Assembly (NCBI GenBank): GCA_036337435.1
Contig: JAYZEG010000095.1
Location: forward strand, 33,606 to 97,605
DNA length: 64,000 nucleotides
Direction of reading: 5' to 3'
Origin: Myxococcota bacterium
GTDB taxonomy: Bacteria > Myxococcota_A > Bradymonadia > UBA7976 > UBA1532
Part shown: piece after piece, positions 24,700-36,243 of the stretch
Position numbering within the stretch: the stretch's first letter is position 1
How the letters are laid out: every line of letters begins with the position of its first letter
The notes under the pieces: generated by a model
Databases searched by the model: none
What the model saw: only the letters and a program-made list of their open reading frames with translations
Told to the model about the DNA's origin: nothing
Translations under genes and position numbers: made by a program

Positions 24700-24889
24700 A
24701 TCAATTTTCCGAGTGATATTGAGTCAAACGTTGTTTCGTTTGTAACCAAGTTTAAGCGTCTTTCGTCTGACCGATACAAACCAGAATGGCCGCGCCCCTA
24801 CAAATAAAAATGACTAGGGGGCTTGATCCCGTGGCATTTAGTGTTAAGTCTTCAGGCGCGAAAAGCCAGCAATTTGATTGGAGCGACAA

Positions 24890-27490
24890 ATGACAGAGAG
24901 TTCTGCGGCCGCCACGAACGCACTTGTCATTGTGGAATCACCCACAAAGGCCAAGACCATCCGACGATACCTAGGCGATGGGTTTACCGTTGAAGCTTCC
25001 ATGGGGCACGTCCGTGATTTACCGTCATCTGCAGCAGACTTGCCTGCCGCAGCGCGAGGCCAACCTTGGGCCCGCTTGGCTGTCGATGTCGCCAACGGCT
25101 TTCAGCCACTGTACGTGGTACCAAGTGATAAGAAAAAAATCGTGTCCGAGCTCAGAAAAGCTCTCAAAGGCAAGGATGTTCTCTACCTCGCAACCGATGA
25201 AGACCGCGAAGGCGAAGCCATTGGCTGGCATCTTGTTCAGTTGCTTAAGCCCAAAGTTCCCACCCATCGACTCGTTTTCCATGAGATCACCAAAGACGCC
25301 ATCAAAAGAGCCATCGACACACCGCGTGAGCTCAACGAGCATGTTGTGCAAGCCCAGGAAGCACGCCGTGTCCTCGACCGACTGGTCGGTTATGAAATTT
25401 CACCACTTCTGTGGAAAAAAGTCGCACCGGGCTTGTCAGCAGGACGTGTCCAAAGCGTAGCGGTCCGTCTCCTGGTGCTCCGAGAACGTGAACGTCAGCG
25501 GTTCGTGACCAGCACGTGGTGGGATCTTCGAGCGAAGTTTGCCGCCGATAACAAGGTCTTTGATAGCAACCTGGTCGCGGTCAACGACCTTCCGATCGCC
25601 ACCGGTCGGTCCTTCGATGAGACGACAGGCGAACTGAAGACTGGTCTCAATGTGCGGTTGTTGGCAGAGTCCGACGCGCAAGCACTCAAGGCGCGCATCT
25701 TGAAGCAACCCTTCGCCGTGAGCGATATTGAGCGCAAAGTACAGGCGCGACGCCCGTATCCACCGTTTACAACGTCGACGCTACAGCAAGAGGCCAATCG
25801 GAAGCTTGGATTTGGTGCAAAACGAACGATGCAAGTTGCACAGCGCCTTTATGAAAATGGACATATCACGTACATGCGAACCGACTCCGTGAACTTGTCG
25901 GAAGAGGCGATTAGCGCCGTGAGAAGCATGGTGAGTCGCCGCTACGGTGATGAACTCCTTTCGCCAAAGCCAAGACGCTTCACGACCAAAGCGAAGGGAG
26001 CCCAAGAAGCGCATGAGGCTATCCGGCCGGCGGGTACATCGATGGCGACCTCGAAAGAGCTTCAGCTGGCCAGCGATGAGGGCAAGCTGTACGACCTGAT
26101 TTGGAAGCGCACTGTATCGACGCAAATGGCCGATGCGAAGATCGCATTGACCACCGCAAAAATCAGCGTGACTGACCCCGAAACCAAGCAGCAATTGACG
26201 TTCAGGGCATCAGGCCGTGAGGTTGTCTTCCCGGGTTTCTTCAGAGCCTACGTTGAAGGGTCGGACGATCCAGATGCAGTGTTGGAAGATAAAGACCAGC
26301 CACTGCCAACACTGACTGTCGGACAGGGGTTAGATTGCCGCGACCTCGATGCCCATGGGCATGAAACCCGTCCTCCGTCGCGATACTCTGTCGCATCTCT
26401 TGTCAAGGCACTGGAGACCCAAGGGATCGGGCGTCCGAGCACCTACGCCAGTATCATTGAGACCATTCAAAAACGTGGATATGTTCGGGATGAACGAAAG
26501 CAATTAATCCCCACGTTCACGGCGATTGCCGTCACCCAATTACTCGAGGAAACACTCGGCCAGGTCATTGATGTCGAATTCACAGCGTCAATGGAGGCGT
26601 GGCTTGATGAGGTAGCCATTGGCAAAGACGCGCAGGAGTATTTAGGGGCCTTCTACCATGAACAGCTGCTCAATTGCATTGAACAGGGCAAAGAGATTGA
26701 CCCGCGTTCTGTATGCACACTTCGAAATGAGCGGATACAGCCCTATCGAATTCGGGTTGGTAAGTTTGGCCCATTCATCGAGTACGATGTTGAGGGAGAA
26801 GAGAAGGCGCGCATTGTCAATCTACCTGATGACGCGGCCCCAGCCGATGTGAATTTGGAGTTCATCGAACAACTTCGAGCGGATGCTTTGAAGGCTGAGC
26901 AGCCCATCGGTATCGATCCCGAAACCGGACTCAATGTGTATGTTCGCAAAGGTCGCTTTGGGCCCTATGTGCAACTGGGTGAACAGGGCGAAGGCAAGGA
27001 AAAGCCGCGTCGAGCCAGTTTATTGCCCGGGCTGACACCTGCCGATATCGACCTGGAATTGGGTCTGAAGCTGCTTACGCTCCCGCGCGAGGTTGGGCGC
27101 CATCCCGATGATAACGAGCCCATTATGGCCAACGTCGGCCGATATGGACCCTACGTGCAACACTTGCGGACATTTGCGTCTGTCAAAGCGCCGGAGTCGA
27201 TTCTCGAGATTGGCTTGGATAGGGCACTGGTGCTTTTAGCCGAACGGGCCAAACAGACCAAAAAAGCAGAGCCCCTGCGCACCCTAGGCGTCCATCCCGA
27301 TGATGAAACACCAGTTGTGGTGATGGATGGTCGATATGGACCTTACGTCAAACACAAACGAACCAATGCTACACTGCCCGACGGGGTTGGTATCGATGCG
27401 GTGACCTTAGAACAGGCCCTTGAGCTTCTTGCCGCGAAGGCTAAAAAAGGCCGCTCAAAGGGCGGCCGTCGTCGCGCAAAAAAATCGTAG
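24890..27490 (+). CDS. topA: DNA topoisomerase I with C-terminal GR(F/Y)GPY repeats
   Basis: IVESPTKA, ATDEDREGE, SAGRVQS, ITYMRTD catalytic Tyr; ATG 24890 after GGAG. Confidence 0.97.
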   Translation: MTESSAAATNALVIVESPTKAKTIRRYLGDGFTVEASMGHVRDLPSSAADLPAAARGQPWARLAVDVANGFQPLYVVPSDKKKIVSELRKALKGKDVLYLATDEDREGEAIGWHLVQLLKPKVPTHRLVFHEITKDAIKRAIDTPRELNEHVVQAQEARRVLDRLVGYEISPLLWKKVAPGLSAGRVQSVAVRLLVLRERERQRFVTSTWWDLRAKFAADNKVFDSNLVAVNDLPIATGRSFDETTGELKTGLNVRLLAESDAQALKARILKQPFAVSDIERKVQARRPYPPFTTSTLQQEANRKLGFGAKRTMQVAQRLYENGHITYMRTDSVNLSEEAISAVRSMVSRRYGDELLSPKPRRFTTKAKGAQEAHEAIRPAGTSMATSKELQLASDEGKLYDLIWKRTVSTQMADAKIALTTAKISVTDPETKQQLTFRASGREVVFPGFFRAYVEGSDDPDAVLEDKDQPLPTLTVGQGLDCRDLDAHGHETRPPSRYSVASLVKALETQGIGRPSTYASIIETIQKRGYVRDERKQLIPTFTAIAVTQLLEETLGQVIDVEFTASMEAWLDEVAIGKDAQEYLGAFYHEQLLNCIEQGKEIDPRSVCTLRNERIQPYRIRVGKFGPFIEYDVEGEEKARIVNLPDDAAPADVNLEFIEQLRADALKAEQPIGIDPETGLNVYVRKGRFGPYVQLGEQGEGKEKPRRASLLPGLTPADIDLELGLKLLTLPREVGRHPDDNEPIMANVGRYGPYVQHLRTFASVKAPESILEIGLDRALVLLAERAKQTKKAEPLRTLGVHPDDETPVVVMDGRYGPYVKHKRTNATLPDGVGIDAVTLEQALELLAAKAKKGRSKGGRRRAKKS

Positions 27491-29161
27491 GCTCACTGAC
27501 TCCGAGGTCCCGCTCACTTGAACTCGGCTGTCTTGGAGCGGACAGAGAACGCTGAGCAGTCGAAAGGGCAGCGTGATGAAGTGGGACCCATCGTCACTCT
27601 GCACGTCGTCTTGCCAATAAGTCCTGACAGAGGCCAGCGCGTCTTTGTCTACAGTTGGGCCCGATATGGTCAGACGAATTTCAGTTTCATCCGGTTCATC
27701 AATCACCTTGATCTGCACTGTTCCGCCCGTGAGACAGTCTCTGAGTACACCCATGCATAACGCGAGTGCTCTCGCGGTTTGCGTAGCGTCGATGGTGAGC
27801 CGATTTGCATCCGGGTCACCCGTTGCATCCTGGGTGTTAATCACGACGCTGATTCGACCGAGGGGATCGTCTCTATATTGCTCCTTAAGCATGCTGAGGA
27901 CAGCATTGACAGAGCACGCTCTGATCCGTAGAGCAGCCACATCTGAATGAACGGCCAAATCCTTACGAGTTCCGTCCAATTTAGATAGGTCAAGAAGGGC
28001 CAGTATAAACCTGAGAAGCGTGTCGCCCCGATGCCAAATTTCAAGAATTTCTTTGCGTTGAGTTTCATTTATTGGGCCTTCAATTTCGTTCACCAACAAC
28101 TCAGAGAATCCTAGGATGCTGTTCAGGGGGCTTTTCAGTTCGTGGCTGATATGCGCTAAAAATCGGTTTTTTTGAGTCTCAGCTTCCCGGCGTTTTTTCG
28201 CTGCGCTTGCGATCTGGTTTTGCTGCCGTCTAAAGCCATCGGCCGCCCTCTCAAAATCAGAAAAGATCTCTGCACATTCTTTGAGACCTACGGAGGTTTT
28301 CCGAGCATCAACCGGGGCGGGCTGCTCCACTCTCGCCAAAGCTGCTGTGATGGCTTTCAAGTCAGTGGCGACATCGTCCGCGATGGCTCGGCATGTGCGG
28401 TATGAGAAGAAGAGAATGCCGAGCACCAACAAGAACGCTGTCGAGTCGAAAGATGACGACTCCAAACCGCTGACCAATGGCACGGACTGTTGAGGCATTT
28501 GGATTCGGACATTGGCAGCCAGTTCTTTTTCCGCGCGTCGCGCAACGGTTGCATGCATTGTCCTAAACGTTGTTTCTATCTCTTCGACACTGTTGGTGTC
28601 GCTCAAATGCTGAACGAGAACCATGCCGAGCCCACACATGACGACGGGCAGCTGTATCACAAAGACCATGCGCATTCGAATGGTCTGCCGCACCCCACCC
28701 AGTGTACGTGTTCCAGGTTGGCCCTGTGTCATGGGACGCAATAGTCGTCGGAGCCAAAGGTAGAGCAACAGATTGGGTAAGGTTGTGATGAGGTAGGTGA
28801 GGACACCCGTTGCGATTGCCTCACCAAGGTCTCTTGACCTCATGGATTGAAGCACGGTGATGAGAATTGCCGCGACCAAGGCACCAACGAAACAGAAACG
28901 CATCACGCTGAACGGATAAGAATACGCGGCGGCGCGGCTGGCATTGGAGTCTGCCCCTGACTCGAGACCCGTTTTTTGGGGAGTGGTCCAGACGATGAGA
29001 AGTAGTGCCGCGAAAAAACCAAAGCCGCACAACGCAAATTGTGTTGTCGCGTCGAATTGGTCTCCTGGTACGACATAACCCAAAATCATGGAGGTCAGGG
29101 TGACGGAGACGGAGATCCAGGTGAAAATCCATAATCGCAATGTGGTCATGGACCGATTCAT
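27455..29161 (-). CDS. Membrane sensor-kinase-like protein with intact H-box and degenerate ATPase domain
   Basis: Multiple TM helices; FLAHISHELKSPLNSILGFSELL; no N-box, DxGxG or GxGLGL downstream. Confidence 0.8.
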   Translation of the reverse strand: MNRSMTTLRLWIFTWISVSVTLTSMILGYVVPGDQFDATTQFALCGFGFFAALLLIVWTTPQKTGLESGADSNASRAAAYSYPFSVMRFCFVGALVAAILITVLQSMRSRDLGEAIATGVLTYLITTLPNLLLYLWLRRLLRPMTQGQPGTRTLGGVRQTIRMRMVFVIQLPVVMCGLGMVLVQHLSDTNSVEEIETTFRTMHATVARRAEKELAANVRIQMPQQSVPLVSGLESSSFDSTAFLLVLGILFFSYRTCRAIADDVATDLKAITAALARVEQPAPVDARKTSVGLKECAEIFSDFERAADGFRRQQNQIASAAKKRREAETQKNRFLAHISHELKSPLNSILGFSELLVNEIEGPINETQRKEILEIWHRGDTLLRFILALLDLSKLDGTRKDLAVHSDVAALRIRACSVNAVLSMLKEQYRDDPLGRISVVINTQDATGDPDANRLTIDATQTARALALCMGVLRDCLTGGTVQIKVIDEPDETEIRLTISGPTVDKDALASVRTYWQDDVQSDDGSHFITLPFRLLSVLCPLQDSRVQVSGTSESVSLRFFCATTAAL

Positions 29162-31047
29162 GCCGTGCCTCCCGAACCGGGTTCGAGCGGTAAAAGTAGA
29201 TGAAAATTACTGCCTTCCCCCTCAACGGAGACGACCCATAATTTGCCATCGTGGCGATCCACTAAGCGCTTAGCAATTGCCAATCCTAACCCCGTGCCAG
29301 GTCGATCTCTTTGCTCGCTCACGCGATAGAATTCGTCGAAGATTGTTTCCTGTTCGGCCGAGGGGATACCCGGTCCGCTATCCCAAACCGAAACATGGAC
29401 GGCCGCACGCCCATCGTCGAAATGATCTCTAATGGTGGTGACTCGAACGTATCCGGAATCTGTATACTTGAAGGCATTTTCAATGAGGTTACTCAAGACT
29501 TGAGTAATTCGTTTTCGATCTGCATGGACCAATGGAACATCATCTGCCGCTGCGATTTCGGCCTTGATTGTTGGCTTTGCGCGGTCTGCCAAGCGGGTCA
29601 TCACCTCTGTTGCTAATTCATTCATGTCAAAGGCATTGATATCCAATGGGATATCCTGCCAGTGATCGAGTTCCGATAGCATGAGAATGTCTCGGACGTG
29701 ATCGTTTAATTGTTCAGCCGCTTGGTCTATGACCGCCAAATCGTTTAGTTGATCTTGATTGAGGGTTTGAGCCGCGAGCTCCGTGCAGCTCTGCCGAATC
29801 GACCGGAGTGGTTCTTGTAATTCATCGCTTGCCGAGCGCAGAAAAATATTTTGAGCTTCATTGCTCTGAGCGGCCAAGTTTAATTCTCTGAGCAGGGCGC
29901 GTTGAACCGTTGTGTGGACCTGCATTCTATCGTTTAGATGCGTGGCGAGGTCGCCGGCCTCATCGTTTCCGGGTATCGGAATTCCACCCATGCTGCCTCC
30001 GTATCGCACGGGTGTGCCCGACGACGCCGGCACCGAGACATTACCTAGACGCTTAAGACCATCTGAGATCGACCGAAGTGTGTTGCGGATTTCAAGGGCT
30101 GCAAGCCAAGCCGCGAGCGGTGAGCCGAAGAGCAGGGCTATCAAAAACACCAGCGAGAATGCAAACTCTGGTGCTGTCGCCGGTGGTGACAGCGTGCCGG
30201 AGACGCCAAGCCAAAGAACCGCATCTTGATAGGGTCTTGTGACAATATGCCATCGACTCCCATCAGGGCTTAGTGCATAAAAGCCATAGGCGGTTGGCTC
30301 CATTCTATCGCTGGCACCGAGCCAACTCGGGACGTCGTTATTTTTGACCAGTTCGGGAAAGATGAATTCTGTTCGGCGCCAGATGGAGAGAATCCTGTTC
30401 CGTTTTTGCTCATCTTTGGCCAGAGCCAGTTCTGCCCCGATCCGCTCGGCTATATCGATGAGCGCATTTCCTTTTAAATTGCTCAAACGCCCTGCTGAAC
30501 GCGCCGTAAGCCCGACGCCTAGCAGGCAGGCTAATATGACACAAATCACAGTTGCATTCAGGGTGGTGATGGTATTGAGAGCAGGTAAGTGTTTTGACCC
30601 GACCTCCCGGCGCGCTCGTCTCAGACTCCGACGCCCTTCGAAGTAGGTTGTCACAGCGATGATAAACCCGGTCCCAATTTGGCAGCTTAGAATCGCGAAA
30701 TTTTCAAAGTTAGGAAGTCGGATATCACCAAGCCCTGATAACCATCGGGCCAGCGCAGTAGCCAAAACAAACGCGATGAGATCCCGCGCGGCACGGTACG
30801 GAAACCCTCCGTCTAATTGCTGTCTCAACCGAAATATCGAGACGCTACACCAGGCTGCGGCTGTAACCAACCCAGCGACTATGCTCGCGAGCCTGACCGA
30901 CCCGGTTGAGATGGGGTCTAATGCGAGGAACCAGGGAACAAGATAGCCCCATATTAAGGGGAGACTCGCCATCAGTCCCAGCATTGGTGCCCAAGGGATA
31001 CGCGTCGTTGCCCGAGGCATTAGCCGTTCGGGATCATTGGTCGTCAT
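29158..31047 (-). CDS. Membrane sensor-kinase-like protein with intact HATPase and His-to-Asp at the H-box
   Basis: TM helices; FLRSASDELQEPL; QVLSNLIENAFKYT, DSGPGIP, FDEFY, GTGLGLAI; start 31047 or 31020. Confidence 0.85.
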   Translation of the reverse strand: MTTNDPERLMPRATTRIPWAPMLGLMASLPLIWGYLVPWFLALDPISTGSVRLASIVAGLVTAAAWCSVSIFRLRQQLDGGFPYRAARDLIAFVLATALARWLSGLGDIRLPNFENFAILSCQIGTGFIIAVTTYFEGRRSLRRARREVGSKHLPALNTITTLNATVICVILACLLGVGLTARSAGRLSNLKGNALIDIAERIGAELALAKDEQKRNRILSIWRRTEFIFPELVKNNDVPSWLGASDRMEPTAYGFYALSPDGSRWHIVTRPYQDAVLWLGVSGTLSPPATAPEFAFSLVFLIALLFGSPLAAWLAALEIRNTLRSISDGLKRLGNVSVPASSGTPVRYGGSMGGIPIPGNDEAGDLATHLNDRMQVHTTVQRALLRELNLAAQSNEAQNIFLRSASDELQEPLRSIRQSCTELAAQTLNQDQLNDLAVIDQAAEQLNDHVRDILMLSELDHWQDIPLDINAFDMNELATEVMTRLADRAKPTIKAEIAAADDVPLVHADRKRITQVLSNLIENAFKYTDSGYVRVTTIRDHFDDGRAAVHVSVWDSGPGIPSAEQETIFDEFYRVSEQRDRPGTGLGLAIAKRLVDRHDGKLWVVSVEGEGSNFHLLLPLEPGSGGTA

Positions 31048-32293
31048 CGTTGGTTTCCAAGTAGACTTCCTGAATGGCTCGAGCACTGGCGCGTCTGACC
31101 GTGAGAGTATGGCCACTCTCCAGAACGACGGTCTCTCCAACCCTTGGTATTCGTCGAAGTGTTTCGAGGATAAAACCGGCGACCGTCTCGTATTCGGTTG
31201 ACTCAGGTATGCCAGCGTTCAGTTCTTGATTCACCAATTCAACTGTTGCTCGTGCATCGATTGCAATGCCGTACTGAAGTTGGCGCCACAGGCCCGTACG
31301 TGAATCGTGTTCATCGTGTATCTCACCTACGATCTCTTCGATGATGTCTTCGAGTGTCAGCAACCCAACCGTTCCGCCAAACTCATCGACGACGATTGCG
31401 GCTGACGCAGCCTCCCGTTGAAGAACAACCATCACCTCATCGACATCTTGTGTCTCTGGCACAAAGTGCGCAGGACGCATCAGTTTGGCGACGTTGATGT
31501 CATCGCCGGTCGCGGTAAACAGATCGAGATGATGAAGAATGCCGACAATGTTGTCGATTCGCTCGTCATAAACGGGCAGGCGGGAATAGCCAGCCCGCGC
31601 GATCAGCTCGACCGCATCACGGACGGTGCTCGTGTGGCTGATGGCAACCATTTCGGCCAGCGGCACCATGCTGTCGCGTGCACGCAATTGATTGAAGGCA
31701 AAGATGCGGGAAATCATTTCCCGCTCGTCTTCTTCGATCTCACCTGGGTCATCGCTGACCTCCATGAGAAGGACAAGTTCTTCGCGGGAGACCATGGTCT
31801 CATCGGAAATCTCTTCGAGTCCCAGTAACCTGTACAAGAGCCGGGTGTAGCTTCGAACCAGCACAATAAATGGCGTAAATAGTCTGTTGACTATGTAGAG
31901 CGGCGTTGCGAGTACACCAGCGAGCGAATCGGCTCGGCTCTGCCCGATGCTTTTGGGAATAATTTCAGCCCCGATCAGAACCAGTGGTGACATTAAAAGC
32001 ATCGCCCACCACCCTCCATTGGCGGGATCAATTTTAATCAGGGTCAGCGATGCAACGGTCGACCCCGTGACCGTTGAGAAATTAGTGCCAAGTAGGGTGG
32101 TGCCAAACAGACGGTCTGGCCGTTCTCGAAACCAAAGGACACGTTGAGCCGAGCTGCTGCCCTTGCGCACCGCTTCTTCGAGACGAATTCGGTTAGCGGA
32201 TACGATGGACAACTCGGACATCGCAAAAAAAGCTTCTGCAAGAATACAAAAACCAACGGTGATCCAAGGTAGAAGGGAGACGAAGATGTCCAC
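31034..32293 (-). CDS. CNNM/CorB hemolysin-family protein (DUF21 + 2 CBS + CorC_HlyC)
   Basis: FFAMSE, AEIIPK, YSRLPVY, VDEFGGTVGLLTLEDIIEEIVGEI, YETVAG. Confidence 0.9.
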   Translation of the reverse strand: MDIFVSLLPWITVGFCILAEAFFAMSELSIVSANRIRLEEAVRKGSSSAQRVLWFRERPDRLFGTTLLGTNFSTVTGSTVASLTLIKIDPANGGWWAMLLMSPLVLIGAEIIPKSIGQSRADSLAGVLATPLYIVNRLFTPFIVLVRSYTRLLYRLLGLEEISDETMVSREELVLLMEVSDDPGEIEEDEREMISRIFAFNQLRARDSMVPLAEMVAISHTSTVRDAVELIARAGYSRLPVYDERIDNIVGILHHLDLFTATGDDINVAKLMRPAHFVPETQDVDEVMVVLQREAASAAIVVDEFGGTVGLLTLEDIIEEIVGEIHDEHDSRTGLWRQLQYGIAIDARATVELVNQELNAGIPESTEYETVAGFILETLRRIPRVGETVVLESGHTLTVRRASARAIQEVYLETNDDDQ

Positions 32294-33324
32294 TAGCGTC
32301 CCCCCCTTTCGTCCGGGTCATTAAGGCCGGGATGAGCATCTGTGATGGGCCCAAAGAGCTCCTCCAAAAGGTCTTCCATCGTACAGAGACCAATGGCCTG
32401 GCCCGATCGATTGATGACGATGGCCATATGGGTGCGGGATGCACGAAATTCTTCAAGCAACTCTGCTGCCGGCCGCCGAGCAAAAGTAAAAAGGGGGTCT
32501 CTTCTGAGATGATTGAGTGCACGTTTAGGTCGAAGTCCCCAGCGGATTGCAAGAAGGTCCTTGGCCATGAGCAGACCGACCACATTTCTCGGGTGCCGTC
32601 GCCAAATTGGAATTCGGCTGTGAGGTTCTCCTGAGACAAGCTCAATGGCTTTCTCAATAGGCGTTTTGTCCTCGAGGGAAAAAACACGGTCCCAAGGCCG
32701 CATAACATCGCCTACCGACAGGTCACCAAAGTCCAGCACATTTTTAATCAGTTGGTGCTCTTGCGCCTCAAGAACGCCCTCTTGTTCGCCCACTTCAATG
32801 AGTGTTCTAAATTCACTCTCATCAATGGTTGTGTCCGCTTGTTCGCCGACCGGCTTACTCAAATTTCGATCGATTGCAAAATCTGTCAATGCCCTTAGAA
32901 AGCCGATAATTGGTCTTGTCGCCTTGATGAAAATCATGATTGGGCGTGCCACCAGCGCCGCGATTAACTCGGGTTTTTTAGACGCGACGGTTTTCGGGGT
33001 AATCTCACCAAGAATGAGCAGTATGGGAATCACCATTGCGGCCGATAACAGTGCCTGTTTAGTCAGAGAATAATCACTGAGCCACTGGCTTGTAATACTG
33101 GCACCAACAATAGACAGTGCAACGTTTGTCAACTCGTTACCCAACAAGACACCGACCAATAGGTCTTTGGGTTTCTCAAGCAGTGAGCTGATCACACGCT
33201 CTATTTTTCGCTCCGATTGCTGCAATCTGGCATGGGCGACCTTGCCAATGCTAAATAACGCTGTCTCCGACCCCGAAAAGAAACCGGACATAAACAGTAA
33301 AACGCCAAATATTAGGTATTCCAC
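32293..33324 (-). CDS. CNNM/CorB family protein (DUF21 + 2 CBS, no CorC_HlyC domain)
   Basis: SGFFSGSETALFS, GEITPK, HSRIP, TMEDLLEELFGPI. Confidence 0.88.
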   Translation of the reverse strand: MEYLIFGVLLFMSGFFSGSETALFSIGKVAHARLQQSERKIERVISSLLEKPKDLLVGVLLGNELTNVALSIVGASITSQWLSDYSLTKQALLSAAMVIPILLILGEITPKTVASKKPELIAALVARPIMIFIKATRPIIGFLRALTDFAIDRNLSKPVGEQADTTIDESEFRTLIEVGEQEGVLEAQEHQLIKNVLDFGDLSVGDVMRPWDRVFSLEDKTPIEKAIELVSGEPHSRIPIWRRHPRNVVGLLMAKDLLAIRWGLRPKRALNHLRRDPLFTFARRPAAELLEEFRASRTHMAIVINRSGQAIGLCTMEDLLEELFGPITDAHPGLNDPDERGGR

Positions 33325-33326
33325 GT

Positions 33327-34244
33327 TTAGTTCGTTCCTCGTAAAAAATGGTCATAGCCTTGGCCATCGACAGGATGTCCATCGAGATAAACGCCGTGTC
33401 CGGGCACACATGAACCAATCCGCAATGCCCAATCGGGTAATGGGGTTTGTGCAGACGCTGTAAAGAGCAGAACGTAGTCCTCACCGCCTGTAATCGCCGT
33501 CGACAGATCGCCGATGACTGGAATTAAGCTCGACTGAAGTTTAATTTTAACACCACTTGCAGCAGCCATACGAGACGCATCCAATAGGAGACCATCTGAA
33601 ATGTCCATACATGCATGAACGCCATCGGTTTTGGCGAGAATTGCCGCCTCCGCAAGGTGTGGTCGCCATTGATGACGCGCTGTCCGAAAAGCGTCAGTGG
33701 GGGATAGGTATCCTCTTGTCGCACGACCGAGGCACCCTGAGATGAGGACGTCATCCCCAGGCACAGCTGCTGTTCTGAGAAGTGGTTTTTCACCGATCAG
33801 ATAGCCGGCCGCCGTGACTGAGATCACACTGGGGCCGGGTTTCAGCGCCAGGTTACCGGTAATCAGCTGGGTCTGATGAAGTCTCAATTCCGAAGCCATG
33901 CCCTGGGTCAGTTCATAGACATCGTCCAGACTCCACTGTCGGTTTAGATTTAAGGTCCAGCTCACCCAAGCAGGTGCTGCACCACTGGCCGCGAGATCGC
34001 TTAAATTGACGACGGCTGCTTGTCGACCGATGTCGTATGGGCGATCGAATTTACGATTGAAATGTGCATCTTCTACCAATGAGTCGGTGGTCACGATCTC
34101 TGTCGACCGCGGTGCCAAGCCACAATCATCAGTGGTGTCGATGTGAAGTCCGCTTTCGTTGAGTGCCCTCTTAATGACCCGTACAAAATCCGCTTCATTG
34201 AGTACTCTGTCGGCGTTTTCCTTCTCTTGCTGCGGACCAGTCAA
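33327..34244 (-). CDS. thiL: Thiamine-monophosphate kinase
   Basis: DDC, TTDSLVE, NLSDLAASGA, DISDGL, GGEDYVLLFT. Confidence 0.88.
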   Translation of the reverse strand: MTGPQQEKENADRVLNEADFVRVIKRALNESGLHIDTTDDCGLAPRSTEIVTTDSLVEDAHFNRKFDRPYDIGRQAAVVNLSDLAASGAAPAWVSWTLNLNRQWSLDDVYELTQGMASELRLHQTQLITGNLALKPGPSVISVTAAGYLIGEKPLLRTAAVPGDDVLISGCLGRATRGYLSPTDAFRTARHQWRPHLAEAAILAKTDGVHACMDISDGLLLDASRMAAASGVKIKLQSSLIPVIGDLSTAITGGEDYVLLFTASAQTPLPDWALRIGSCVPGHGVYLDGHPVDGQGYDHFLRGTN

Positions 34245-34249
34245 TTGCC

Positions 34250-35524
34250 CTACACCTGTGTCAACGGTATCGCAAACGAGAAGGTCGAGCCTTGCCCCAT
34301 GCGACTAAAAACTTCTATCCGTCCGCCGTGAGCTTCGACAAAATTTTTTGCAATCGACAGCCCAAGACCTGCTCCACCGTACTCCCGGGTCACGCTGTTG
34401 TCCACTTGGTAGAAGGCATCAAAGATTCGGATGAGGTGTTGCCGTTCAATCCCTTTACCTGTGTCCTGAACAGACACCTTTATCCCGTATTTTGGCGAGC
34501 GGCGCGTGCCTTGCTGGTCGCCTGTTGGTAGTCGCGTTCGCGAAAGCGCGACGGTGACCTGTCCGGCCGCCCCAGTAAACTTTACGGCATTGCCGATGAG
34601 GTTTAGCAGGACTTGGCGGATTTTTTGAACGTCAATCTGGATCTCTGGCAGGTCTGGCTCAATGGATTGATTGAGGTGGATATCGCGTTTCAGAGCTGTT
34701 GGGCGAAGGGTTGCTAAGGCATCCTCGACGAGTGTGTCTAGCGCACACTGTTCGAGGTCAATGGATGCTCCGCCCCGTTGTATGACCGAAATTTTAAGTA
34801 AATTGTCGATCATTTCTAACAGCGTCTGTCCACGTTCTCGGATGATTTGGACATACTCGGCTTGCTCCACATTGAGCTCGCCACCATAGCCGTCGAGCAA
34901 CATGTCAGAATAGCCCATCACAGAGGTGAGTGGGGTCCTCAATTCATGGCTGACGGTGGCCAGAAATTGGCTCTTTAAATCATCGAGTTCGCGCAGCCGA
35001 TTCAGATTTGCTGCGAGTGCTGCGTTCCGAGTTTCCAAGGCTTCATTGGCGACTTGAAGTTCTTGGGTTAAGACCTGTGCGGCGATGGCGTTTTGCTCTC
35101 GCTCTCTGAAGCCCCTAGCTGCAGATCGATAAGCCAAAATCAGGCTGGATGTAAGAGACGTTGCCATCTCTACGGTATGACGTGATGCCGAACGGCCTTG
35201 GATGGTACCGGTCGAGGCACTCTGATGGCTGTGACCGCCTCCATGAACTTGACCGTCCAATTCACTGACGCAGAGATTGGCTAGGTGTCGACTCTGATCG
35301 ATGACAGCGAACTCGGTTTGAGCACTGGGGGCTTTGATACTCAAGTCCAGATTTCGGGACCGATCTGTTTTGGGAACACAATCGACGATCATCTCTCCGC
35401 TGACTGCACTCAGTTGGATGCGGACGGAAAAACAATCTGCAAATACCTGACACATGTCCGTCAAGGGCTCAAGGCCGATGATCTCATCGATGGGGATCGA
35501 TGAAACTTCGTCCGTGATTGTCAT
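34250..35524 (-). CDS. Soluble sensor histidine kinase (canonical HisKA + HATPase; N-terminus weakly PocR-like)
   Basis: FLATVSHELRTPL, QVLLNLIGNAVKFT, DTGKGI, GAGLGL; no obvious TM helix. Confidence 0.92.
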   Translation of the reverse strand: MTITDEVSSIPIDEIIGLEPLTDMCQVFADCFSVRIQLSAVSGEMIVDCVPKTDRSRNLDLSIKAPSAQTEFAVIDQSRHLANLCVSELDGQVHGGGHSHQSASTGTIQGRSASRHTVEMATSLTSSLILAYRSAARGFREREQNAIAAQVLTQELQVANEALETRNAALAANLNRLRELDDLKSQFLATVSHELRTPLTSVMGYSDMLLDGYGGELNVEQAEYVQIIRERGQTLLEMIDNLLKISVIQRGGASIDLEQCALDTLVEDALATLRPTALKRDIHLNQSIEPDLPEIQIDVQKIRQVLLNLIGNAVKFTGAAGQVTVALSRTRLPTGDQQGTRRSPKYGIKVSVQDTGKGIERQHLIRIFDAFYQVDNSVTREYGGAGLGLSIAKNFVEAHGGRIEVFSRMGQGSTFSFAIPLTQV

Positions 35525-36243
35525 CGGTCAAACTGCCAAGCCGTCTGAGATTGTGTGATAAAATAATAGGCTAATGCGAACAGCAGCAGTAGCAACCCGC
35601 CGGTGAGAATGGTCGCAAGACCACGCTTGCTTCCAGCAGCCACTCGAGAGATCTTTTGATCCATATGGCCTGCTTCTACCAATGCGGCCTGAATGACCTT
35701 CTGGCGGTATTCCGACGCCTTCTCGTTCTCTGGATCGGCATCTAAGGCCTCTCGGTAGCAGGATCCAGCATAGGTCAGCAAACGCTGACTCGCACAAAGA
35801 GCAATGAATTGTTTGTGCCCGTCTTCATCGTCCCAATTTGCCTCGAGTGACGCCCATAGGGCCGGTAGCTTTTCCTCGAGCGGATGTCCACTCAGGGGAT
35901 TCTTCCATTTTTCGAGTTGCCTTGGATTGGCAGATTTTGGCACCAACCCACAGCGTGGACAGGCCTCATTTTCAGTCTCTTTAGGCCAACTACATTTTGG
36001 GCATGAGATGATGAGGGCGGGTGCAGTCCGAGGGGCGGGCGGGGTTGCACTCTCCACTTGGCTCGTGCCTGTTGCCGTTGTTGAATCCTTGGCGTCTGTA
36101 GATGTTGAGCCGCGATACTTTGGAACCGGACCGATCGACGTTTTGTGTCCACAACTCTCGCAGACGAGTACAAAAAAACCCTCTAGGGCTTGGCATTGAC
36201 TGATGAGATGGCTTTGGCCACACGCTTCGCATTGAATATCCAC
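35521..36243 (-). CDS. Zinc-ribbon protein with C-terminal TM anchor
   Basis: Four CxxC pairs (CEAC, CESC, CPKC, CPRC); C-terminal hydrophobic helix; overlaps start of the kinase gene. Confidence 0.75.
   Translation of the reverse strand: MDIQCEACGQSHLISQCQALEGFFVLVCESCGHKTSIGPVPKYRGSTSTDAKDSTTATGTSQVESATPPAPRTAPALIISCPKCSWPKETENEACPRCGLVPKSANPRQLEKWKNPLSGHPLEEKLPALWASLEANWDDEDGHKQFIALCASQRLLTYAGSCYREALDADPENEKASEYRQKVIQAALVEAGHMDQKISRVAAGSKRGLATILTGGLLLLLFALAYYFITQSQTAWQFDR

Follow-up and report, generated by a model that had tools for sequence, protein, structure and literature searches.

The 64,000-nucleotide window analysed here (positions 33,606 to 97,605 of contig JAYZEG010000095.1 from a Myxococcota bacterium) contains two head-to-tail open reading frames (ORFs) on the minus strand, hkA and, downstream of it, hkB, which encode paralogous membrane histidine kinases with reciprocal sequence defects. 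HkA possesses all of the N, G1 and G2 boxes of a canonical kinase and lacks the phospho-acceptor histidine, at the position of which it carries Asp408, while HkB possesses the phospho-acceptor histidine (His340) and none of the three boxes. As judged from the sequences of the family, selection holds the ATP site of HkA and the acceptor helix of HkB and releases the acceptor of HkA, the ATP site of HkB apparently having been released long ago. We consider it probable that the catalytic (CA) domain of HkA phosphorylates His340 of HkB in trans within a hetero-oligomer.

In such a complex the DHp domains of HkA and HkB (for dimerization and histidine phosphotransfer) would associate, in the simplest case as a heterodimeric four-helix bundle like that of RetS-GacS, and the CA domain of HkA would supply the phosphoryl group to His340. 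From HkB it would go on to a response regulator whose gene lies elsewhere; via its HE..S motif, HkB could possibly also dephosphorylate that regulator. Each subunit would bring a homologous sensor of six transmembrane (TM) segments, and the unit could in this way combine two inputs. We infer the binding, the phosphotransfer, the downstream regulator and the two-input integration alike from the pattern of the sequences. At the sequence level, the ATP module and the acceptor lie on separate polypeptides in the genus of the window, which is what defines a split kinase, and the partnership would be obligate there because of the loss of ATP binding by HkB and, subsequently, of the histidine by HkA. 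HkA and HkB may work like a split kinase without being relatives of CheA; Pfam detected HisKA and HATPase_c only in the two genes and no Hpt domain, CheW-like domain or CheA-type P1-P5 architecture.

Reciprocal defects in two paralogous kinases

The preliminary description of this DNA had noted an aspartate in an HkA with a full ATP-binding domain, next to an HkB with a good H-box and no ATP-binding motifs. This reciprocal defect was confirmed, and a script reproduced all the coordinates and motifs given for both genes (codons, boxes and ATGA overlap; Table 1). HkA has the kinase fold according to its Pfam matches (HisKA 30.9 bits, HATPase_c 99.5 bits) and its profile alignment to kinase cores. 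Its ATP site was followed in 38 HkA-family sequences, taken from 23 genomes and from metagenomic proteins after removal of near-duplicates (≥95% identity). Twelve ATP-motif residues (N520, N524, K527, D556, G558, G560 and the G2 residues 584-589) are kept in 38/38, and the sole variation in these motifs is one GSGIGL for GTGLGL. In the window's genus, the CA domain is the best-conserved part of HkA, with a pairwise identity of 0.70 (full-length protein: 0.52), while the mean identity of helix alpha-1 of its DHp domain is 0.48, versus 0.71 among genomes with a canonical HkA. In the same window-genus genomes, helix alpha-1 of HkB is 0.92 identical. For five close species pairs, the ratio of nonsynonymous to synonymous substitution rates (dN/dS) ranges from 0.02 to 0.35 in the CA domain of HkA and from 0.04 to 0.15 in its DHp domain. 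The latter is still constrained where the histidine is missing, with a dN/dS of 0.145 in a pair bearing tyrosine at that position (G018-G042) and of 0.053 between the window's own genome (G000) and G002, ratios for this last pair being imprecise because its dS is saturated.

HkB shows the opposite pattern. Its H-box, SHELKSPLN, is invariant in 22/22 sequences and lies in a HisKA domain (49.6 bits) whose helix alpha-1 has a mean pairwise identity of 0.90-0.92, compared to 0.36-0.44 for the whole protein; the dN/dS of its DHp domain is 0.00-0.13 in five pairs. HkB also keeps the HE..S motif that is compatible with phosphatase activity. Conversely, HATPase_c gave no Pfam match in HkB, the D.G.G and G.G.G patterns are absent from it, and the N, G1 and G2 boxes are missing from every one of the 22 copies examined. 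Among 19 members scanned with Pfam, HATPase_c was matched in one, at E 2.8e-4. The C-terminal 170 residues of HkB nevertheless retain the fold that goes with these boxes, aligning column for column with the CA domain of HkA in a profile-profile comparison. An AlphaFold model of the cytoplasmic half, built from a 19-sequence alignment, consists of a DHp hairpin and an alpha/beta sandwich (predicted local distance difference test score 86.2, predicted TM-score 0.82). Foldseek placed this model among the kinase cores GacS (nearest, E 8.3e-12), ZraS, RetS, DivL and HK853, and a sequence-profile search returned the same proteins on top (GacS E 8.4e-21, RetS E 6e-16, DivL E 1e-12). A search with this pseudo-CA domain alone matched just HkB itself and one relative, a result with no bearing on the existence of a wider family.

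The pseudo-CA domain contains seven invariant residues (D432, P433, R464, G471, L473, D475 and G480), and its dN/dS in five close species pairs amounts to 0.15, 0.20, 0.47, 0.17 and 0.41. By these ratios it is the least constrained part of the protein, yet clearly under purifying selection. Neutral evolution of the HkB C-terminus, which would have spoken against a functional pair, is thus not what these five pairs (0.15-0.47) display, and because of the purifying selection the domain is not dispensable as a fold.

The two proteins are related over their whole length. Comparing the HkA and HkB families with hhalign gave a probability of 99.9 (E 1.7e-33) over 537 columns, which begin with the first TM segment and end at the C-terminus, and in a joint tree of 35 HkA and 21 HkB sequences one branch with 100% support divides them. 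This single dividing branch points to one old duplication, before the family diversified. A hydropathy scan found six hydrophobic segments in HkB and five strong ones in HkA, where a weaker sixth is implied by the alignment to HkB; the loop before the last segment is about 115 residues long in HkA and about 60 in HkB. The pair had originally been described as carrying two different sensor domains. There are indeed two separate sensors, but they are not unrelated, since the profile-profile alignment makes them homologous six-TM modules. Neither Pfam nor, for the sensor half of HkA, the ESM Atlas assigned these modules to a named sensor family; in the Atlas this half fell in generic periplasmic-sensor clusters with scores of at most 0.90.

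As GAT and CAT are one base apart and the sequence comes from a draft genome assembled from a metagenome (87% complete, 95 contigs), one might suspect that the Asp codon arose through faulty sequencing or assembly, or that hkA or hkB is a pseudogene. We regard this as extremely improbable. The codon at 29824-29826 was looked up in other sequence data and proved unchanged in contigs from runs X2 and X4, seawater metagenomes from two different studies; two further runs do not cover it, and one run is possibly the window's own source sample. The HkA orthologue of G002, which is 83% identical, likewise has Asp. Weightier than the contig coverage, all seven HkA sequences of the window's clade lack the histidine (D, D, S, Q, Q, Q, E), and for this reason we take Asp408 to be real. 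Moreover, both ORFs are open and dN/dS lies well below 1 in every segment. The substitution ratios, the H-box survey and the metagenome contigs together refute an artefact or decay.

Conservation of the pair and order of the two losses

Within 28 species genomes of one Myxococcota family, G000 included, hkA has a full-length, single-copy orthologue in 23 (22 besides the window's), and in the same 23 genomes it is immediately followed by an hkB orthologue in the same orientation. No genome among the 28 was found with one of the two genes alone. In the remaining five (G004, G005, G013, G017 and G019; 70-99% complete) these queries detected neither an hkA nor an hkB orthologue, the HkB query giving generic H-box matches alone (best E 1.5e-14 to 2.3e-7). 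In 16 order- and class-level genomes outside the family, likewise, there were kinase-core matches alone and no orthologues of the pair. The ATGA overlap of the hkA stop and the hkB start in the window predicts translational coupling, and a 4-nucleotide overlap (ATGA or GTGA), in frame with hkB, recurs in 21/22 relatives; in G008, hkB starts 22 nucleotides past the hkA stop. In G021 (L037, G021:C9), hkB is open for 271 codons from its GTGA overlap and then continues in another frame, owing either to a frameshift or to misassembly of this metagenome-assembled genome; its sister genome G043 has an intact copy.

The family itself is small: when 1.84 billion representative proteins were searched exhaustively with a profile, the 150 best matches held about 19 clusters of true orthologues, the remaining matches being multi-domain hybrid kinases. 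A word-indexed search with whole HkA was dominated by generic kinases, with 4 matches among 8000 scored candidates, and when the HkB profile was run against genome contigs, 80 loci were retained, of which about 7 match HkB over most of its length and the others little beyond the H-box region.

The H-box of HkA proved to be variable. It is canonical, with His followed by Glu or Asp, in 23/38 sequences; in 3/38 the His is kept and the next acidic residue lost (Ala, Ala, Met), and in 12/38 the His is absent. Besides the seven sequences of the window's clade, the latter comprise those of the genera g16 (Y, Y) and g10 (Q, Q) and the sequence P0013 (K). The His-less window clade is deep, with 44-52% identity among its members. 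On the maximum-likelihood tree of HkA, well-supported branches force at least four changes between His and no His and at least three between canonical and degenerate H-boxes; a tree with fewer rows requires at least two changes of the His state. Each H-box degeneration, of which there were at least three, retains the CA motifs, and this repeated decay with the CA domain kept is the pattern expected if the substrate of that domain is not HkA's own histidine. The replacement of the histidine by six different residues argues against a specific new role for the position.

The likely order of events is one duplication, loss of ATP binding by HkB before the family radiated, and then repeated loss of a redundant histidine in HkA. 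As HkB was already ATP-blind before the radiation, its invariant histidine needed a foreign catalytic domain from then on. The proposal of an obligate reciprocal pair, made earlier, has to be narrowed accordingly: the complementarity fits the comparative data, but with 23/38 HkA sequences canonical it is not the ancestral design, and the obligate form is a derived state of a genus-level clade and a few other lineages. Of the three traits to be compared in orthologues, adjacency and the loss of the HkB ATP motifs are, whereas the loss of the HkA histidine is restricted to 12/38.

Two other histidines were considered as acceptors in HkA. The G001 protein (L032, G001:C47) reads SSHLQRPL, with Ser at the His position and His one residue later, and a register-shifted acceptor in this protein is unlikely; a +1 His as alternative acceptor occurs in just 1/12 His-less sequences. 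The nearly invariant helix alpha-2 histidine (H450) was rejected as a replacement because it is equally conserved in lineages with the canonical His. In genus g16 (G018 and G042; L039, L131) the H-box, SYELRTPL, is intact except for a Tyr in place of the phospho-His.

The same residues could also be read as a sign that the two proteins function independently, the HkB histidine being charged by the neighbouring kinase HkC or an orphan kinase, the HkA CA domain acting on another acceptor, and the adjacency being a legacy of the duplication. The +1 His of G001, H450 and the abundance of other kinases in the genome (the HkA kinase core gave 15 matches in G000) would suit such an arrangement. It is hard to reconcile with the perfect co-occurrence (23 genomes with both genes, 5 without a detected orthologue of either), with a fixed gene order and a 4-nucleotide overlap persisting across a deep family, and with the rarity of the +1 His and the equal conservation of H450 where the canonical His is kept. 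We deem it improbable.

Gene neighbourhood and alternative readings of the pair

The positions of the features in the window are collected in Table 1. The gene order around the pair is conserved and runs from a protein of about 230-240 amino acids (with a weak zinc-ribbon match) via the canonical kinase HkC, a ThiL-like AIRS protein, a CNNM/CBS and a CNNM/CBS/CorC protein to HkA and HkB; Pfam bore this order out in the loci of five relatives. An HkC-like match upstream of hkA was present in 19/22 relatives' loci, with an identity of 37% (G007) to 69% (G002), and there was none in G003, G008 and G012, where the sequence stretches examined end before that position. In G011, HkC carries a PocR-like sensory domain. 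hkA itself is overlap-coupled to its upstream CNNM/CBS/CorC neighbour, and at the other end the 3' ends of hkB and the convergent topA (24878-27490, plus strand) overlap by 36 nucleotides (27455-27490). The divalent-cation transporter-like neighbours may hint at the signal sensed by HkA and HkB. The junction of hkA and hkB is spanned by one metatranscriptome contig (run X19, 29088-29324), and a second (X20) falls within hkA; because such contigs may stem from DNA in the library and are no proof of a single transcript, these give a weak hint at most of expression in seawater communities.

Table 1. Positions of hkA, hkB, their functional parts and adjoining genes in the window
Feature	Position	Strand	Remarks
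hkA	29158..31047	minus	629 amino acids from ATG at 31047 (alternatively from TTG at 31140); six-TM sensor, HAMP-like linker, DHp domain without phospho-His, intact CA domain
HkA DHp domain, residues 396-470	29638..29862	minus	From alignments; the H+4 Thr of the phosphatase motif is also lost in this clade
GAT codon for Asp408 of HkA, in place of the phospho-acceptor His	29824..29826	minus	Inside FLRSASDELQEPL
HkA ATP-binding motifs	29281..29490	minus	N box NLIENAFKYT 29461-29490; G1 DSGPG 29368-29382; G2 GTGLGL 29281-29298
hkB	27455..29161	minus	568 amino acids; six-TM sensor, linker, DHp domain with invariant H-box, degenerate CA-like domain
HkB DHp domain, residues 326-400	27962..28186	minus	Helix alpha-1 identity 0.90-0.92; dN/dS 0.00-0.13 in five pairs
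CAC codon, His340 of HkB, predicted phospho-acceptor	28142..28144	minus	Inside FLAHISHELKSPLN; SHELKSPLN
HkB pseudo-CA domain, residues 401-568	27458..27961	minus	Kinase fold without N, G1 and G2 boxes
TARALALCMG in place of the HkB N box	27749-27778	minus	
ATGA overlap of hkA stop and hkB start	29158..29161	minus	Coordinates checked by script
Overlap of hkA start codon and 3' end of the upstream CNNM/CBS/CorC gene	31034..31047	minus	14 nucleotides
Tightly packed upstream gene string	31034..36243	minus	Pfam on window ORFs; 240-amino-acid zinc-ribbon-like protein, HkC, ThiL-like AIRS protein, two CNNM/CBS transporter-like genes
HkC, canonical cytoplasmic kinase	34250-35524	minus	Pfam

No cognate regulator of the pair was identified. 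Among the scanned ORFs of at least 180 amino acids between 18 and 44 kb of the window there was no receiver domain, and a search of the window's own genome for a receiver of the operon type returned ten ordinary receiver domains, none of them near hkA-hkB. In 6/22 relatives' loci (G011, G014, G020, G041, G006 and G015) a stand-alone receiver gene directly follows HkC, and not HkA or HkB.

This operon context is the reason why we keep, as a possible though clearly less likely explanation, that both proteins are pseudokinase regulators in the manner of RetS and DivL, which would tune a pathway without themselves being the source of the phosphoryl signal. HkB, blind to ATP, would then use its histidine to dephosphorylate, or to draw phosphate from, a regulator or another kinase such as HkC, and HkA of the window's genus would be a non-phosphorylatable scaffold or ATP sensor. 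RetS and DivL indeed rank among the best solved relatives of HkB, RetS has been described as having lost ATP binding and yet keeping its histidine (PMC8498467), the HE..S motif fits phosphatase activity, and g16 HkA has Tyr at the His position. Moreover, the canonical HkC is a conserved operon neighbour, followed by the receiver gene in the six loci mentioned. Such a role leaves unexplained why 12 ATP residues stay intact in all HkA sequences through at least three independent H-box decays, why six different residues instead of one specific substitute took the place of the histidine, and why hkA and hkB, rather than hkC and hkB, are coupled by an overlap in 21/22 relatives. Of the features of a RetS-like inhibitor, HkB has the kept His with a lost ATP site and lacks, according to Pfam, the C-terminal receiver domains that RetS uses.

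Returning to phosphorylation of HkB by HkA in trans, several points weigh against it. The 23/38 HkA sequences with a canonical H-box mean that HkA's own histidine is under selection in most lineages, and HkA may be an ordinary homodimeric kinase there with HkB as its modulator. In the ancestral system, too, HkA may have functioned as an ordinary kinase and HkB as a phosphatase or a modulator resembling RetS. One of the closest solved relatives of HkB is RetS itself, an inhibitor of another kinase whose own ATP binding has been lost. Pseudokinases can keep nucleotide-binding domains for non-catalytic roles, so that intact motifs are no proof of catalysis, and the saturated dS of G000 and G002 detracts from the dN/dS ratios of that pair. 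Finally, no response regulator gene adjoins hkA-hkB, and the stand-alone receiver after HkC, limited to 6/22 relatives, was not seen in the window's genus.

Relation to known heteromeric kinases

Histidine kinases are by default treated as homodimers, and to our knowledge heteromeric kinases comprise few cases (the inhibitory RetS-GacS, CheA3/CheA4 and, since 2025, FasB/FasC). DivL of Caulobacter crescentus (PDB 4q20) has a kinase fold in which the phospho-His is replaced by Tyr; it signals without autophosphorylating and regulates a separate kinase, CckA, through a response-regulator sensor function. g16 HkA shares the Tyr at this position with DivL, which, unlike HkA, is not paired with an ATP-blind paralogue. 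Intermolecular complementation experiments on kinase mutants have reportedly been performed for EnvZ and NtrB.

FasB and FasC of the FasBCA three-component system of group A Streptococcus are the closest precedent for hkA-hkB, by analogy of layout and of division of labour. According to the published account (PMC12675982, Mol Microbiol 2025), the two proteins show hetero- but not homo-interaction in a two-hybrid assay, the histidine of the downstream FasC (H246) is required and its own kinase domain is dispensable, the kinase domain of FasB is needed, and the authors model trans-phosphorylation of the downstream histidine by the upstream protein. As in hkA-hkB, where this arrangement is conserved in 22 relatives, the two are adjacent kinase-like genes on the same strand that encode six-TM sensors with DHp and CA-fold domains; fasB and fasC are co-transcribed and each product has six predicted TM segments, a DHp domain and a HATPase domain (PMC12675982). 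In HkB, the His is invariant and the ATP motifs are absent in 22/22, and the pseudo-CA domain is still under purifying selection. In Fas, deletions established the dispensability, and candidate histidines are kept in FasB, whereas in hkA-hkB both defects are in the sequences themselves. The Fas regulator, FasA, is encoded in the operon, while hkA-hkB has no adjoining receiver gene. Fas furthermore belongs to a different phylum and comes with genetic and two-hybrid data.

CheA3 and CheA4 of Rhodobacter sphaeroides, the split kinase proven by biochemistry, do not autophosphorylate alone and do so as a mixture, and the paper in question predicts further split HisKA kinases from the 3.66% of HisKA proteins without HATPase, 1.7% also having a phosphatase motif (PMC3591291). 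The likeness to HkA and HkB lies in a kinase module and a phospho-acceptor on separate polypeptides. By that description, CheA3 and CheA4 are of the CheA class (P1-P5) and miss whole domains, in contrast to HkA and HkB, which are membrane HisKA paralogues that kept their folds and lost key residues.

For RetS-GacS of Pseudomonas aeruginosa (PDB 7n0e, 6dk7 and 7z8n), PMC8498467 reports a DHp-DHp interface that mimics a homodimer and autophosphorylation of GacS in trans, for which a His-minus (H293A) and a G2-minus (G472A/G474A) mutant complement each other in vitro. RetS resembles HkB in the kept His and the lost ATP binding, and GacS and RetS are both among the nearest solved relatives of HkB. 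However, GacS is fully functional alone and is inhibited, not completed, by RetS; both are hybrid kinases that carry receivers, and their genes are non-adjacent. The complementing GacS mutants have the same configuration of one His-minus and one ATP-minus partner, but as laboratory mutants of a single gene, whereas in hkA-hkB that configuration is natural, lies on two genes and is maintained by selection.

In the literature on heterodimeric, split and pseudo-histidine kinases we found no paper on this family or on such pairs in Myxococcota. The novelty of hkA-hkB lies in its natural occurrence with both defects fixed in sequence, in its being kept family-wide and in the several independent origins of the second defect. 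Going further, we put the chances at about even that hkA-hkB is a natural obligate heteromeric HisKA kinase that originated by an evolutionary ratchet, with the histidine of the ATP-binding neighbour lost at least three to four times, and that it acts as a two-input gate with two sensors and one output. The organisms that carry it are uncultured marine Myxococcota. For annotation, the lesson is that adjoining 'degenerate' kinases should be read as pairs. If biochemistry confirms phosphorylation of HkB by HkA, the pair would be a model for trans-phosphorylation between different gene products, for the way in which paralogous sensors become mutually dependent and for the integration of two signals by a single kinase core. 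The division of labour can be read in the sequences and traced through the evolution of this family, which, if our interpretation is true, would hold repeated natural replicates of the classic complementation experiment between a His-minus and an ATP-minus kinase.

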